DNA of 63,567 bases, filler included, from an uncultured archaeon (GTDB lineage: Archaea; Nanobdellota; Nanobdellia; Woesearchaeales; CAIVOO01), in the NCBI GenBank assembly GCA_903842985.1. It is 6 parts of 6 records of this genome, joined end to end, with 100 filler letters (N's around TTAATTAATTAA, not from the genome) between each part and the next. Parts side by side here need not be neighbours in the genome. Positions count along the whole stretch, not along the records: positions 1 to 29,446 come from CAIMOB010000013.1; 5 more parts are not named here. The stretch is one strand, 5' to 3'. The position numbers were made by a program. Shown piece by piece: positions 12,001 to 18,000 of this stretch; positions within the stretch are counted from its first letter, which is position 1, and every line of letters begins with the position of its first letter.

Positions 12001-15000
12001 GTTCTTGCATCAGGTGAGATAGACAAAAAACTGATAGTTACTGCATGGCAGTTTTCAGAGCAGGCAAAGGAAAAAATAGCTAATGCAAAGGGAACGTGCA
12101 TGACAATCCCTGAGCTGATGAAAAAGAACAACATTAAGCCGTCGCAGATGAGGGTAATAGGATGATAATAGACGCAACAGACCTGATTGTCGGAAGAATG
12201 GCTACGAAAGCCGCGAAGCTTGCTTTGCTTGGCGAGAAAGTTGATATTGTCAACTGCGAGAAGGCAGTCATCTCCGGAAACAGGAGGGAGATAATTGAAA
12301 AGTACAAGGCAAAAAGAGACTTTGGTCACACTCCGTTCAAGGGCCCTTATTTTCCAAGGAGCTCAGACAGATTTGTCAAAAGAGTGATAAGGGGGATGCT
12401 TCCATACAAAAAAAGCAAGGGCGATAAGGCGTTCAAGAGAATAAAATGCTACCTGGGCCTGCCAAAGGAATTCGAGAACGAAAAGACAATCGCCACAATA
12501 AAAGAGGCAAATTTTTCAAAACTTCCTAATCTAAGATACATGCGTGTGGGCGAAGTTTCAAAAGAGATTGGTGCAAAATGAAGGTAATAAACACATCAGG
12601 AAAAAGAAAGAAAGCAATAGCGAGAGCTGTGCTGAGAGAAGGAACTGGGAAAGTAAGATTTAACAAGATTCCAATCGAACTGGTGAAGCCGAAGATGGCT
12701 TTGCTTAAGCTTAAAGAGCCTTTGGTTCTTGCCGGCGACCTTGCCAACAAGGTTGACATTGATGTTGATGTAAACGGCGGCGGAAGCATTTCAGGAGCAG
12801 AGGCAGGAAGGCTTGCAATTGCAAAGGCGCTTGTTAGCTATTCAAAATCAGAAAAGCTAAAGCAGGTATTCCTGGCTTATGACAGAAACATGCTGATTGC
12901 AGACGTAAGACAGAGAGAGCCAAGGAAGCCTAACAATAGGGGAAAAGCCAGGCAGAAAAAGCAATTGAGCAAGAGGTAAAAATGATAATACCAATAAGAT
13001 GCTGGAGCTGCGGAAAACCCATTGCGCATCTCTGGGAAGAGTATGAGGAGAGAGTTGCAAAAGGCGAGGACAAAAAAAAGGTTTTGGATAGTTTGGGCCT
13101 TGATAGATACTGCTGCAGGGCAATGCTCCTCGGCCACGTTGATTTGATAGACGTGACTGCTCAGTTCAAAAAGTTCTGATTATGGATTTCATAAAGATCC
13201 AGGGAAAGTGGCAGAAGAAATGGGAAGATGCAAAGCTGTTTGAGTCAAATGAGGGCTCAAAAAAGAAAAAATTCTACTGCCTTGAGATGTTTCCTTACCC
13301 GTCTGCTTCTGGCCTTCACATGGGCCATGCAAGGAACTACATCATCGGCGACATCTATTCAAGATTCAAAAGGATGAATGGCTTTAATGTTCTTTACCCA
13401 ATGGGCTATGACGCGCTTGGACTGCCTGCCGAAAACGCGGCAATAAAAGCTGGAACGCATCCGAGAAAATTCACAGAGGATGCAATCAATAATTTCATAA
13501 AACAGCAGAAGGAAATCGGATTGAGCTATGACTGGAGCAGGATGCTCAAGACCTGCGACCCTGAATATTACAGATGGAACCAGTATTTCTTCCTGAAATT
13601 ATACGAAAAAGGGCTTGTCTACAGGAAAAAGGCGCCTGTGAACTGGTGCCCGAAGTGCAACACTGTGCTTGCAAATGAGCAGGTGCATAACGGCAAGTGC
13701 TGGAGGCACAAGGATACAAGCGTTGAGATAAAGCATCTTGAGCAGTGGTTCATCAAGACAACTGCCTATGCTGACGAGCTGCTGGAAATGACAGATGCCC
13801 TTGACTGGCCCGAAAGAATCAAGCTGATGCAGAAGAACTGGATAGGAAAAAGCTACGGCACAGACATAGATTTTGAGATTAACGGGAAGAAATGGTCAAT
13901 TTTCACGACAAGGCCTGACACGATTTACGGCGTTACTTTCATGGTTGTTTCTGCGCAGCATCCGCGCCTGATGGAACTTGTGACAAAAGAGCAGAAGAAG
14001 GGAGTTGAGGCTTTCCTGAAGAAAATAAAGTCAACAAGCGAGAAAGACATCGAAGAGCTTGAGAAAGAGGGAGCGTTTACAGGAAGCTATGCTGTGAATC
14101 CGCTGACAAAAGACAAGATTCCTGTTTATGCTGGCAATTTCGTGATTGCAGAATACGGTTCTGGAATGGTAATGGCTGTTCCTGCGCACGACCAGAGAGA
14201 TTTTGAGTTTGCAAAGAAATACAAGATTCCGATAAAACAAGTAATAGCTCCGACTTTTATAACTAACGCGGGGCATGATGCAGTTAGAAAAGATAAGCCT
14301 ACTTCAGCAAGAGATTCTGCTATTGGGATAGTCAAGCATTGGAAAGAGGATAAATATTTTGTTTTAGATTGGAAAGAATTTAGCTGGAAAAGTTTTGTTA
14401 TTGGTGGAATTGAAAAGGGTGAGACTCCTGAGGAGGCAGTTGTTAGAGAGGTAAAAGAAGAAACAGGTTACCAAGACATAAAATCTGTAAAACCAATTGG
14501 ATTTGAGATTCATACTAAATTTTTCGCCAGACATAAAGATGTAAATCGACATGGGAAATTTAAAACTTTCTTAGTGGAATTGGGCTCTGATAAATACAAA
14601 AAACCTGAAGAAGAGCATACTAAAAATCATATTGGAAAGTGGTTAGAAAAAGAAAAGATATCAGGATACATTAATTTAGAAGACAATAAATTTCTATGGG
14701 AGGCTTATACAAAAGGAGAGAGCGCTTACACAGAAGAGGGCACGCTTGTCAATTCAGGCGAATTCAACGGGATTAACAGCAGGGAAGCCATTGATGAGAT
14801 TTCAAAGCATCTTGAGAAGAAAAAACTTGGAAAAAGAACACTGCAGTACAAATTAAGGGACTGGCTTGTTTCAAGGCAGAGATACTGGGGAACGCCGATT
14901 CCGTTTGTCTACTGCGACAAGTGCGGGCTGGTGCCTGTTCCTGAAAAAGAGCTGCCTATAATCCTGCCTGAAAATGTAAAGTTCGGCGAAGGCAATCCGC

Positions 15001-18000
15001 TTGAGACAAACAAGGAGTTTGTCAATGCAAAATGCCCGAAATGCGGAGGAAAGGCAAGAAGGGAAACAGACACAATGGACACCTTCTTTGACAGCAGTTG
15101 GTATTTCCTGAGGTTCTGCGACAACAAAAACAGCAAGGAGCCGTTTGCAAAGGAGAAAGTAAAGTTCTGGATGCCTGTTGACCTTTATGTTGGCGGGGCA
15201 GAGCACGCGTGCATGCACCTGATTTATGCAAGATTCTTTGTAAAAGCACTGAGGGATTTGGGCTTGTTGAAGTTTAATGAGCCATTCACAAAGCTTTACA
15301 ACCAGGGAATGCTTCACGGCACAGACGGTTTTGTAATGTCAAAATCAAGGGGCAATGTTGTCCTGCCTGAGGAGATTTCAAAGAAATACGGGATTGATAC
15401 TGCGCGCGTTTTCCTGATGTTTGTTGCGTCGCCTGACAAGGACATGCTGTGGGATGACAAAGGAATAAGCGGATGCTCAAAGTTCATGAACAAGGTAATT
15501 TCATTGTTTGAGAAAAAAATAACAAATGAAAAAGATTCGCTGCTTGAGTCAAAAACAAACAGGACAATAAAAGAGGTTACTGAAAAGATAGAAAGCATGC
15601 AATACAATGTAGCTTTGATAGATTTGATGGAGCTTGTCAAGTTCCTTTCTTCAAGAGAGACAGTTACAATGCAGAGCATTGAATCTTTGCTGCTGATTTT
15701 AAGCCCATTTTGCCCGCATGTCTGCGAGGAGCTGTGGGAGAAGCTTGGCAACAGGGGATTTATTGCTTCTGAAAAATGGCCTTCTTACGACGAGAAGAAG
15801 ATAAATCTTGAATCTGAGTATCTTGAGGACATAATTGCCAATACAAAATCAGATGTAATAACAGTTTTGGAGCTTGCAAAGATAGAGAAGCCGAAAGAGA
15901 TTAAATTGTTTGTCAGCGATGACTGGAAATACAAACTTTACAAACTGGTTGTTGACAAATTAAAGGAAACAAGGGATGTTGGAGTGATACAAAAGGCAGT
16001 TATGGCAACTGAATTGAAGAAATTCGGAAAAGACATTATCAGGATGATTCCGAGGATTATTGAAAATCCGCCTAAGATTGTTCTTAATCAGGAGAAAGAG
16101 CTGAAGAAGATAAAAGAATCAAAAGAAAGAATAGAAAATGAGTTCAAGTGCAAGGTTGAAGTGGTTAAAGAAGCTGATTCAAAGGAGCAGAAGGCAAGGC
16201 AGGCATTGCCTGGCAAGCCTGCGATAATAATCAGCTGATTCTAAGAATTATAAAGCGGCGAGCCCGCACAAATTTTTTATAAAAATTTGATAAAAATAAT
16301 GCGACTCCTAGTTGCTGCGCAACCGGAGTCCCATAATGGCTTCTTGGGCTTTAGAATACAGAATCAATAATAAATTACAGAATATAAAGCGGCGAGCCCG
16401 CAGAATTCGCAACAAACAACACTTACTGGTTTACCCCGAGTTTTCCTCAATTCCGCTACCCCATAAGCATCAAGCATTAAGGTTAGGGCTGCTCTGTTCC
16501 CAGCCTGACCCATTTCCCATAACGAAGATCCTACAGGACAGAATCTCATGGTACGACCCAAGACCAGCAAGCACTGCTTGCCTCTCGTCCTGCGTATAGC
16601 CCCTTCGTGAAGCCGATTTAAGGTGACAGGGTACGGCTAGCACCCCAGCATAGCCCGCCATAAAGCCATATAGAAAGGGTATTTAAAAAGGTTTTGATGT
16701 ATATACAAGTCAACAAACTACTTCACATAGGCATAAACCATATCATCCATGAATTTGCCTTTTTTCAGCTTGTTTTTCCTCAAAATACCTTCAAGTTTGT
16801 AGCCTGACTTTTCTAAAACCCTTGCAGAGGGTTTATTGAATGTCCTGACATTTCCAGAAATTCTTTTTAGCTTGTGTTTCTTGAAAAAATATTCTGTTAC
16901 TATTTTTACTGCCTTTGTTGTGATGCCTTTGCCCCTGCACTTTTTTGCAATCCAATAAGAAATAATTGCCTTGTGCCCCTTTATTATGTCGTGAATCCCG
17001 ATGCTGCCAACTGCTTCGCCATCAATATCTATGACAAAATTCTCAGAATTCTTGCTTTTGTGAAATAATTCCTTTCCTGCCTCTTTTAGATTCTTCGGCA
17101 TAGACATAAAGTTTCTTGCAGTATCTTTATCCTGATAATTCTTGAACCAGCATTGCAAATCGCTCTTTTTTGCGGGCCTTAGAATGAATTTTGGATTTTG
17201 AGATTTTAGTATCATTAGATATACAAATTGAAAAATGATTTATATATTTATCTAAATATTAATCAGCAAAACAATCAGCGCACCGACAAAGCAGCCAGCT
17301 GAAATAAATGGCATTGCTGGATAGAACTGCTCTTTCTTTGCTTTCACCAAAAGCAGAAGCAGTGCAAGTGTCGAGAAAGCAACAACAATCAATGACTGCA
17401 AAAAGCCGACTAAAACAGAATGGTGAAGCATCAAGCTTTTCATAACAACGCCTGCGAAAATTAATGGGAAGCCGATGTCCCCTCCGCCAAGCACAGCTGT
17501 CTTGACCATTACTATCTTTTTAGGTGCTGCCTTCAGAACATTTTTTGGAATTCGCTTCGGCATTTTGTATGGCAGAAGCAGGCCCGCAAATATCTTTTCC
17601 TTTGACTGCCACTTCGCAAGCTTAATCATGTGCTTGCTTTTCCAGACAGCATAGGCGTCATAGCCTGAAATTAATACAAGCAGAACAGTTACTGAAAATA
17701 CATTCATAATTGGGACAAAGAGTGCTGCCAGTCCGCCATAAATGAAAAGCTCTGAAATATTATGAACAAAGATGTTTGGCTTGAATACCTTCCAGAGCGA
17801 AACAATCAATGCCAGCACAAAAGCAATGTACTGATTGATGAAAGCGCCAAAAGCAAATGTCAGACAAATTAAAATGCTCAGGAAAAACCAGGTTTTCCAG
17901 ATGCTGCCTCCGCCAAATTTTATAATCACAAAAATTAATGCAGTTCCAATCAGTATCGCTGCAAAAATCCAAATAAATGATGTTTTTTCCTCAATCTGCG

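Follow-up and report, generated by a model that had tools for sequence, protein, structure and literature searches.

The leucyl-tRNA synthetase of a Woesearchaeales archaeon joins a bacterial body, an archaeal C-terminal domain and an apparently separately acquired Nudix domain

How did one aminoacyl-tRNA synthetase gene come to hold bacterial and archaeal parts together with a further enzyme, and what does that enzyme do there? The question is raised by leuS (13182..16238, + strand; 1018 aa) in the window, the whole 63,567-nucleotide stretch, filler included, analysed from an uncultured archaeon (GCA_903842985.1). An earlier note had described this gene as the sole LeuRS of the genome and as a three-part mosaic. 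No second LeuRS gene was found in the assembly, which is 92.65% complete and could lack a further copy in its missing part, and the mosaic is borne out by Pfam, NCBIfam and alignments to the T. thermophilus and P. horikoshii enzymes: a bacterial body, an archaeal C-terminal domain and an intact Nudix domain in the I4b loop of the CP1 editing domain. Our preferred reading, to which we give a probability of roughly 70%, is that the enzyme is functional and competent in editing and arose in two distinct steps, with the Nudix domain as an active, optional accessory.

The NCBIfam model for bacterial LeuRS (leuS_bact, TIGR00396) scores 954.9 bits on the protein, over its cut-off of 548.4, and the archaeal one (leuS_arch, TIGR00395) scores 305.8 bits, under its cut-off, with the best stretch at residues 658-1017. 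Pfam places tRNA-synt_1_2 at residues 218-358, NUDIX at 399-493 (47.8 bits; cut-off 21.1) and Anticodon_1 at 787-885. Since the alignment to T. thermophilus LeuRS falls into two blocks (6-356/9-363 and 513-732/374-599), 156 aa (residues 357-512) replace 10 Thermus residues. The AlphaFold model of the full protein has a mean pLDDT of 93.9 and matches T. thermophilus 1H3N in Foldseek with an E of 4e-82. Both class Ia signatures are present: HMGH at residues 46-49 (13317..13328, +), with H46 and H49 kept in 60/60 DPANN Nudix-bearing LeuRS, and VMSKS at 718-722, within a bacterial-type stretch comprising the end of CP1, the second Rossmann half and the anticodon-binding helices (residues 513-880; 14718..15821, +). 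By the motif definitions in the available part of PMC3747510, the portion of CP1 preceding the insert (residues 218-356; 13833..14249, +) holds the T-rich region TTRPDT (242-247), the GTG loop YGSG (325-328) and the catalytic D340; T242, T243, R244, T247 and D340 occur in all 60 DPANN insert-bearing LeuRS. In body, editing motifs and fold the enzyme resembles bacterial LeuRS (T. thermophilus 1H3N/2BYT; S. pneumoniae CP1, same source), but its C-terminal domain is archaeal and its I4b, described in the available text of PMC3747510 as a non-conserved loop, holds a folded 156-aa enzyme. As identical junctions recur in independent homologues, the chimera is not an assembly artefact; the 3′ insert junction is bridged by one contig identical to the window, which may be its source sample, and the 5′ junction by no contig among those listed.

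The bacterial C-terminal domain is absent from the window LeuRS, alignments to bacterial LeuRS ending at about residue 881-884, and the tail matches P. horikoshii LeuRS instead. The last 289 aa align to residues 667-966 of that enzyme (E 1.9e-29), which was also the only match when the archaeal-type tRNA-binding domain (residues 881-1018; 15822..16235, +) was searched alone (E 3e-11). D891, V895, P1013, I1015, I1017 and S1018 align with P. horikoshii D845, I849, P962, I964, I966 and E967, whose roles are given in PMC4005665; four of these six tRNA-contacting residues are identical and one is conservative. The C-terminal domain and its tRNA contacts are thus common to the two enzymes (P. horikoshii structure 1WZ2), whereas up to residue ~880 the window LeuRS is of bacterial type. 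Both tRNA-Leu genes found in the assembly carry A47c, G47d and A73, archaeal identity elements, and isoacceptors beyond these two were not found there; the tRNA-Leu(GAG) gene (11706..11791, +) encodes a likely substrate of the window LeuRS. By analogy with the chimeric NmLeuRS1/2 of the haloarchaeon Natrialba magadii (Fang et al. 2014, PMC4005665; Andam et al. 2012, PMC3436685), for which reading of A47c/G47d tRNA-Leu via the archaeal C-terminal domain was demonstrated biochemically (PMC4005665), this domain would let the bacterial body read the A47c/G47d variable loop. The design of a bacterial body with an archaeal tail is already known from that work. Haloarchaeal chimeras likewise combine a bacterial Rossmann fold, CP1 and helix bundle with an archaeal C-terminal domain and with archaeal tRNA-Leu carrying A47c/G47d, and Haladaptatus LeuRS matches residues 2 to 1017 of the window LeuRS. 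They differ, however, in being without the Nudix insert, and the window LeuRS is single copy. A single haloarchaeal enzyme was sampled; its body lies no nearer to the window body than those of ordinary bacteria do and branches apart in the tree, and its C-terminal domain is 26% identical to that of the window LeuRS, whereas six of seven DPANN archaeal-type enzymes reach 43-47%.

On the descent of the body our results depart from the earlier note, which had a whole CPR Nudix-LeuRS gene passing to DPANN archaea and receiving its archaeal tail afterwards. CPR LeuRS do share the insertion, as the note had stated, and the same site is used in many enzymes with a bacterial C-terminal domain; that ending has to be limited, though, to 61 of the 119 non-self matches listed for the insert region, the remainder being 23 long archaeal, 28 short archaeal-ending and 7 cut or unclear (PF13603 and PF00293 occur in 120/120 among the matches listed). 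The insert is also commoner in the phylum of a Paceibacterota record (20 of 86 sampled genomes vs 10 of 401 in the window's class, with queries of differing sensitivity), and CPR-DPANN exchange of TyrRS and TrpRS is reported in the available part of PMC5370408. The body nevertheless shares 70-73% identity with DPANN LeuRS that lack the insert and only 50-53% with those of the CPR clade, Bacillota/Fusobacteriota LeuRS reaching 51-53%. In the body tree it pairs as sister with a DPANN enzyme that lacks the insert (SH-aLRT 97), and among 281 rows no bacterial-C-terminal sequence falls within the DPANN group; AU tests reject both placement of the window LeuRS with the CPR clade (p 2e-47) and a single clade of all Nudix-bearing LeuRS (p 1.4e-7). 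No sustained CPR-like stretch extends beyond the insert edge, and the codon break described below is limited to the insert. Whole-gene transfer from CPR is contradicted by these data and appears extremely unlikely; the trees place the body in the DPANN clade and, because their deep branching is weakly supported, leave room for a very ancient donor that predates the DPANN radiation and lay close to the root of the CPR clade. Among relatives the bacterial body is present in 31 of 41 and the Nudix insert in 3 of 41, and in the window's class this body was found in 67 of 151 genomes. All 26 other loci spanning the insert site are without the insert, which is patchy even inside one family (3/7). 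The widespread chimera is the older of the two, and the Nudix domain was added later, by itself. The first and old step would have been the fusion of a bacterial-type body to the archaeal C-terminal domain, giving a resident DPANN lineage of LeuRS.

Alleles of this lineage may replace each other in place, at one locus. A same-genus genome (G001) has a fully archaeal-type leuS in the same slot, and the two genes are homologous in DNA only over about 30 codons at the start and about 20 at the end. The 5′ stretch (about 31 codons; 13182..13275, +) and the 3′ stretch (94% DNA identity; 16176..16225, +) may represent the left and right recombination arms. In relatives, leuS alleles of all three types sit directly after the upstream neighbour (12982..13179, +), which we take to be rpoN-like; downstream, an archaeal SRP RNA (16390..16660, - strand; 129 bits) is a landmark common with G001. 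The second and recent step would have been the entry of the 156-aa Nudix cassette into the tolerant I4b loop via recombination within leuS, the source being an AT-richer leuS allele, with the nearest inserts in other DPANN genomes. A blind two-breakpoint search delimited a low-GC3 tract at codons 351-512 (14232..14717, +), suggestive of a recent cassette, with a GC3 of 0.21 vs 0.51 elsewhere in leuS (p 2e-11) and 32 of 151 synonymous codons ending in G or C vs 346 of 684 outside; an amino-acid-matched test gave p 7e-10, and the tract is the strongest of its kind among the genome's 186 long ORFs. Comparable breaks at p<0.001 were seen at 7 of 71 loci, the window's own included, in one direction throughout, and 64 loci had no significant break. 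The nearest insert (69% identity) lies in a DPANN locus, L031, with a GC3s of 0.23, the best bacterial-C-terminal protein reaching 60%. In the insert tree archaeal inserts are interspersed among bacterial ones, with 11 archaeal/bacterial changes, at least five of them forced by strong branches. As judged from the sequences, the cassette moved on its own, apart from the LeuRS body, and within a pool common to DPANN and Patescibacteria. One could instead suppose that the DPANN chimera had the insert from the outset, with repeated losses since: 21 of the 32 sampled archaeal inserts form one group, and the change counts do not separate gain from loss. However, a single archaeal insert clade is rejected (AU p 2e-7), the window copy carries foreign codon use, and insert-free relatives keep a conserved ~11-aa I4b loop resembling that of canonical bacteria, all of which leaves ancestry with loss very unlikely. 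For the mobile cassette that we prefer, the immediate donor and ultimate direction are not fixed, because the trees were built under LG without site mixtures and the window insert falls in an unresolved 25-row group, four rows of which are bacterial. The exchange described in the available part of PMC5370408 involves the same two groups; here it would be a sub-gene cassette that passes between the two domains of life while the host gene stays and its loop content is exchangeable. The locus is a clear-cut example that can be dated: 156 foreign codons within an essential translation gene, with a LeuRS of the other type in this position in a same-genus genome. Transfer between ultra-small bacteria and archaea would act below the gene level and would confound phylogenies of these organisms that rely on LeuRS.

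The Nudix domain itself (residues 357-512; 14250..14717, +) models as an alpha/beta/alpha Nudix fold (pLDDT 95.7), and the complete Nudix box claimed for it, G408-x5-E414-x7-R422E423-x2-E426E427-x-G429 (14403..14468, +), was recovered with every residue in place. E423, E426 and E427 occur in 60/60 DPANN copies and in 117-118 of 118 bacterial site-A copies, and R377, K452, N455, R456, H483 and W487 are likewise conserved; conservation and model together point to an active metal-dependent pyrophosphohydrolase. Inteins are marked by a Hint domain, an N-terminal Cys/Ser and a C-terminal His-Asn; the insert gave no Hint Pfam match and its junctions (QVIA-P...KG-ESAY) have no fitting terminal residues, and a self-splicing insert was rejected. 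The best structural match is E. faecalis 2AZW (Q836H1; Z 18.4, rmsd 2.0, 142 aligned), and the closest characterised folds are Ap4A-Ap6A/8-oxo-NTP hydrolases (Z 15.1-16.3), among them MsMutT1 (16.3), Rv2985 (15.3), Ndx1 (15.2) and the Aquifex Ap4A hydrolase (15.2). With 2AZW and the Ap4A/Ap6A/MutT1-type Nudix proteins (3I7U, 1VC8, 5GG5-series, 9CXX) the insert has the fold and the complete box in common, but it is 19-26% identical to them, has its own pocket residues (R377, K452, N455, R456, H483) and lies inside a synthetase. The fold does not pick the substrate, since 2AZW is without an assigned one and Nudix proteins of other specificities occur at Z 14-15. Profile matches to Ap4A hydrolases are weak (E 5e-5 and 9e-4), and RppH and MutT equivalog NCBIfam models give 21-27 bits vs cut-offs of 98-183. 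Dinucleoside polyphosphates (Ap4A/ApnN, p4A) are our leading, tentative prediction, ahead of damaged or non-canonical (d)NTPs and, on a par with these, some other substrate. Such ApnN are made by synthetases from aminoacyl-adenylate chemistry according to the available part of the review PMC7705103, in which LeuRS is not named as an Ap4A source (0 occurrences). RNA 5′-triphosphates or Ap4N caps come last: action on bound tRNA or other RNA 5′ ends, by RppH-like pyrophosphate removal or Ap4N decapping, would suit a loop that adjoins the editing pocket taking the tRNA 3′ end, the conserved basic pocket residues, weak NCBIfam RNA pyrophosphohydrolase matches (E 4e-6, far under cut-offs), the presence of RppH among the fold matches and the ability of LysU to Ap4N-cap RNA in vitro (PMC8131947, available part), but RppH (TM 0.59; Z 13.8) ranks under the ApnA hydrolases and the domain also occurs at three other loops of different geometry, and we consider this unlikely. 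That the domain makes up for the lack of an inorganic pyrophosphatase and drives amino-acid activation forward is highly unlikely: in a search covering family I (PF00719) none was found in the window genome or in 53 of 68 genomes searched, yet the family was present in 6 of 34 insert-bearing vs 9 of 34 insert-free genomes (Fisher p 0.56).

The same history would also fit a house-cleaning Nudix enzyme parked as a pure passenger within a gene that is essential and well expressed, and unconnected with synthetase chemistry, and we put this at slightly under even odds. It agrees with the patchy presence within the family, with the free-standing members of the subfamily (35 of the 46 non-LeuRS members scanned are plain Nudix proteins), with unrelated domains in the same LeuRS loops (YdeN/RBBP9-type serine hydrolase, Ham1, HAD, nucleotidyltransferase-like and Pfam-blank) and with CP1-remnant+Nudix proteins that keep the Nudix box though the T-rich motif and GTG loop are lost; its value would then be chiefly evolutionary. 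The subfamily is concentrated in LeuRS, however, to which 96 of 144 new top representatives belong as whole proteins or pieces, at four different loops and with up to three copies per protein; one host is a ProRS, and the top 150 representatives show no other large host protein. A dedicated role, in which the domain would destroy LeuRS-made ApnN or Ap4N RNA caps as quality control beside editing while its cassette, smaller than a gene, spreads across bacteria and archaea into the editing domain of an essential gene with a swappable middle, is conceivable though doubtful, and would bear on the question of whether a synthetase disposes in cis of by-products like Ap4A. In the two-step reading that we favour, the Nudix domain would be dispensable for aminoacylation and editing. 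The chimeric LeuRS is the known part of this enzyme; the exchangeable enzyme cassette in its editing domain appears undescribed so far, no description of a Nudix domain inside LeuRS having been found in the literature searched. An extra enzyme domain within a synthetase is also seen in the IleRS with a GNAT domain (NCBIfam NF040702). Two observations count against dinucleoside polyphosphates as the substrate: the genome holds six Nudix genes besides the insert, and one free-standing product, which we take to be Ap4A-hydrolase-like, reads SKG, with a Lys that presumably matters, where the insert reads IGG.

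The presence of a Nudix domain within the LeuRS of this archaeon is real, and the domain layout described in the earlier note was reproduced, with the Pfam editing domain at residues 218-358, NUDIX at residues 399-493 and a complete Nudix box. The leuS ORF (13182-16238, plus strand) encodes 1018 aa and is contiguous only with positions 1-29446 of the window, whose six contigs are joined by spacers (N runs 29447-29546, 44443-44542, 46126-46225, 48018-48117 and 49995-50094). The body is indeed of bacterial type (NCBIfam leuS_bact, 954.9 bits; leuS_arch scores under its cut-off, best over residues 658-1017), the insert limits are set by the Thermus thermophilus LeuRS, which aligns over 6-356/9-363 and 513-732/374-599, and the archaeal tail is seen in the final 289 aa, which match Pyrococcus horikoshii 667-966 (E 1.9e-29), bacterial enzymes ending near residue 881. 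AlphaFold gave a pLDDT of 93.9 for the whole chain and 95.7 for the insert alone. No other LeuRS was found in the 0.88-Mb assembly (92.65% complete), and in contigs from sequencing runs, which covered the gene in short pieces only, no joint cleanly omitting just the insert was found. None of the runs listed as containing the sequence was an RNA data set. An archaeal SRP RNA and an intron-bearing tRNA-Leu mark the host as an archaeon, to which the genes around leuS, presumably ribosomal, also point; the label DPANN is used here as it appears in the source names of homologues. Since the insert starts 17 residues past the editing Asp, it lies in the loop named I4b in PMC3747510.

The combination of a bacterial body with an archaeal tail has been described before and is common. 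In the Natrialba LeuRSs studied by Fang et al. (PMC4005665), which read A47c/G47d, a bacterial N-terminal region is joined to an archaeal C-terminal domain (CTD), and according to Andam et al. (PMC3436685) the bacterial form is present in most haloarchaea. In the window enzyme the CTD contact residues D891, V895, P1013, I1015 and I1017 (P. horikoshii D845, I849, P962, I964 and I966) are kept, S1018 stands in the place of E967, and A47c, G47d and A73 are all present in the two tRNA-Leu genes found. A bacterial-body LeuRS is encoded in 31 of 41 genomes (its own and those of 40 relatives) and an archaeal-type one in 7; three have no LeuRS-grade match among the matches listed, and just three carry the insert. 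In the class, the bacterial body occurs in 67 of 151 genomes and the insert in 10 of 401, spread over six families, the nine others being confirmed LeuRSs. Many enzymes end instead in a second kind of archaeal tail, a short CTD of about 85 aa (loci L006 and L126-L156, homologues P0003-P0101) that is common in the class; it retains the Asp helix as well as the terminal PGKP-x-I strand, but a helical subdomain of about 55 aa is missing.

The earlier note suggested that a CPR-type LeuRS had been taken up by DPANN archaea, but the body of the window enzyme, judged from sequence comparison, is not from CPR. Across the 742 core columns, insert-free DPANN enzymes share 70-73% identity with this body, CPR-clade enzymes 50-53%, whether or not they carry the insert, and those of Bacillota/Fusobacteriota 51-53%. 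In a FastTree phylogeny of the 281 rows kept after removal of duplicate loci, archaeal-type LeuRSs, rows with fewer than 620 of the 742 core columns and rows more than 93% identical (alignment A1 excludes one locus with stops), the DPANN group holds no bacterial-tail sequence and the CPR-containing clade no archaeal one, a single archaeal row being unplaced. IQ-TREE (LG+G4, 55 rows) placed 24 of 25 archaeal rows in one clade (SH-aLRT 90) and the window enzyme as sister to an insert-free one (SH-aLRT 97). AU tests rejected both the grouping of the window LeuRS with CPR (p 2e-47) and a single group of all Nudix-bearing LeuRSs (p 1.4e-7). On body identity, body trees and AU tests, whole-gene transfer from CPR was rejected for this gene. 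A CPR-like conversion tract in the insert flanks was likewise rejected, as the QVIAP edge alone shifts.

The only other genome of the same genus, G001 (64% complete), encodes a fully archaeal-type LeuRS flanked by the same neighbours, which share 81-94% protein identity with those of the window. DNA homology to G001 enters leuS up to 13275, disappears, and resumes at 16176-16225 (94%); the CTDs of the two enzymes are 47% identical overall. Given the shared neighbours and a homology confined to the ends, nearly the whole gene was therefore exchanged in place in one of the two lineages, the apparent route being recombination within its first ~30 and its last ~20 codons. The other five members of the family have chimeric LeuRSs with bodies dispersed across the tree. 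Downstream of leuS, within 16238-16720, a 23-nt stretch (AGAAT/TATAAAGCGGCGAGCCCGCA) occurs twice, one copy lying at the SRP RNA 3′ end, and positions 16269-16368 also match contig C12 at 89%. The region after leuS in G001 consists of about 1.6 kb of different DNA, with an ORF that we take to be Lrp/AsnC-like, and the GNAT-like gene at 16718-17215 of the window is absent there.

The Nudix domain has moved independently of the LeuRS body, and recently. GC at third positions is 0.24 in the insert and 0.54 and 0.52 on its flanking sides, and a blind two-breakpoint search of leuS returned codons 351-512, that is, the insert plus six codons upstream. Synonymous codons end in G or C in 32 of 151 cases within this tract versus 346 of 684 elsewhere (p 2e-11); the low use persists after amino-acid matching (p 7e-10), and the tract is the steepest such 150-codon drop among the genome's 186 long ORFs. 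A codon break (p<0.001) was found in seven of 71 loci, the insert being lower every time, and the remaining 64 showed none. The insert tree mixes archaeal with bacterial copies, with 11 changes between the two (bootstrap range 10-12), and a single archaeal clade is rejected (p 2e-7). Since the nearest inserts are archaeal (67-69% identical) and the best of them has a GC3s of 0.23, the cassette probably came most directly from another DPANN allele, one richer in AT, which would itself draw on a cassette pool common to Patescibacteria; the best bacterial-tail inserts are 59-60% identical. A CPR origin of the insert in the ultimate sense is plausible from the diversity found there, the tree being unrooted. 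An intein was rejected on Pfam rows and junction residues, and no target-site duplication was evident at the insert junctions, at the protein level, at four sites.

The arrangement extends beyond CPR and DPANN. Within the Patescibacteria, 20 of 86 sampled LeuRSs carry the insert (sequences were retrieved for all 28 frames of at least 896 aa and for 12 shorter ones, and the remaining 46 were judged by length), and in the Bacilli order of G428, a group with small genomes, at least 28 of 201 genomes encode a Nudix-bearing LeuRS (loci L206-L215 and L079). The ESM Atlas yielded generic Nudix clusters only, with Minisyncoccota as the most frequent taxon. In the literature searched we found neither the insert nor the DPANN chimera described, although CPR/DPANN genome papers, or the tables in them, may mention them; transfer of TyrRS and TrpRS between CPR and DPANN has been published (PMC5370408). 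The present analysis adds the refutation of whole-gene transfer, a codon-level footprint of recent cassette entry, and a LeuRS type swapped in place within one genus.

Because signature and editing residues are kept (T242, T243, R244, T247 and D340 in 60/60 DPANN insert-bearing enzymes), aminoacylation and editing should be canonical, and the intact editing residues led us to reject the Nudix domain as a substitute for a degenerate editing site. The Nudix glutamates are present in 60/60 DPANN and 117-118 of 118 bacterial copies, and the subfamily residues R377, K452, N455, R456, H483 and W487 suggest a phosphate-rich substrate. The top fold match of the insert is 2AZW (Z 18.4, rmsd 2.0, 142 aligned), listed without an assigned substrate in PMC5389931 and absent from PMC5158307, followed by MutT1, Rv2985, Ndx1 and the Aquifex Ap4A hydrolase (Z 15.1-16.3), with other Nudix types barely lower. 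Aminoacyl-tRNA synthetases form ApnN out of aminoacyl-adenylate, in an account in PMC7705103 whose relevant passages do not name LeuRS, and Ap4N capping of RNA by LysU in vitro is reported in PMC8131947. We would rank ApnN first as the predicted substrate, at roughly one chance in three, then damaged NTPs as a more tentative candidate, and RNA ends as a doubtful third. Among genomic paralogues, the insert is closest to a free Nudix gene at 59489-60214 (minus strand; 30% over 115 columns), which resembles an asymmetric Ap4A hydrolase in its motifs.

A putative functional tie to synthetases would accord with the finding that 96 of 144 new top representatives of the insert subfamily are LeuRS-derived, that the subfamily sits at four different LeuRS loops with up to three copies per protein, and that one copy resides in a ProRS. 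The latter (P0208) is of the archaeal/eukaryote type, with the Nudix domain between the anticodon-binding and C-terminal domains. Alternatively, the domain may be a passenger: serine hydrolase, Ham1, HAD and nucleotidyltransferase-like domains are found in the same loops, the insert occurs patchily, free-standing proteins make up 35 of the 46 short subfamily members scanned, the genome has six further Nudix genes, and the Nudix box is retained in stand-alone proteins in which the editing motifs of CP1 are gone. The idea that the domain makes up for a missing pyrophosphatase found no support and was rejected: the family I enzyme (PF00719) is present in 6/34 insert-bearing versus 9/34 insert-free genomes (p 0.56; G001 counted as insert-free, and 8 of 20 bacterial insert-free genomes judged by frame length alone), showing no association with the insert.

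The stand-alone proteins (273-308 aa; P0173, P0190, P0193, P0219, P0247, P0249, P0260 and G629:C10:7141-7860) consist of a decayed CP1 shell, which has lost the T-rich motif and the GTG loop, enclosing an intact Nudix domain of the insert subfamily, and stop at the CP1 end; a metagenome scan gave no match to them, and in G629 the protein adjoins a Nudix-bearing LeuRS. LeuRSs of up to 1795 aa (L073, L184, L185, P0002, P0088 and P0122) hold several inserted domains at recurring loops, namely Nudix (up to three), Ham1, HAD, serine hydrolase and nucleotidyltransferase-like domains. Loop I4b also holds Pfam-blank inserts of ~70 aa and ~115 aa (L119, L154, L148, L152, L173 and L177), the ~115-aa one occurring in archaeal and bacterial genomes alike.
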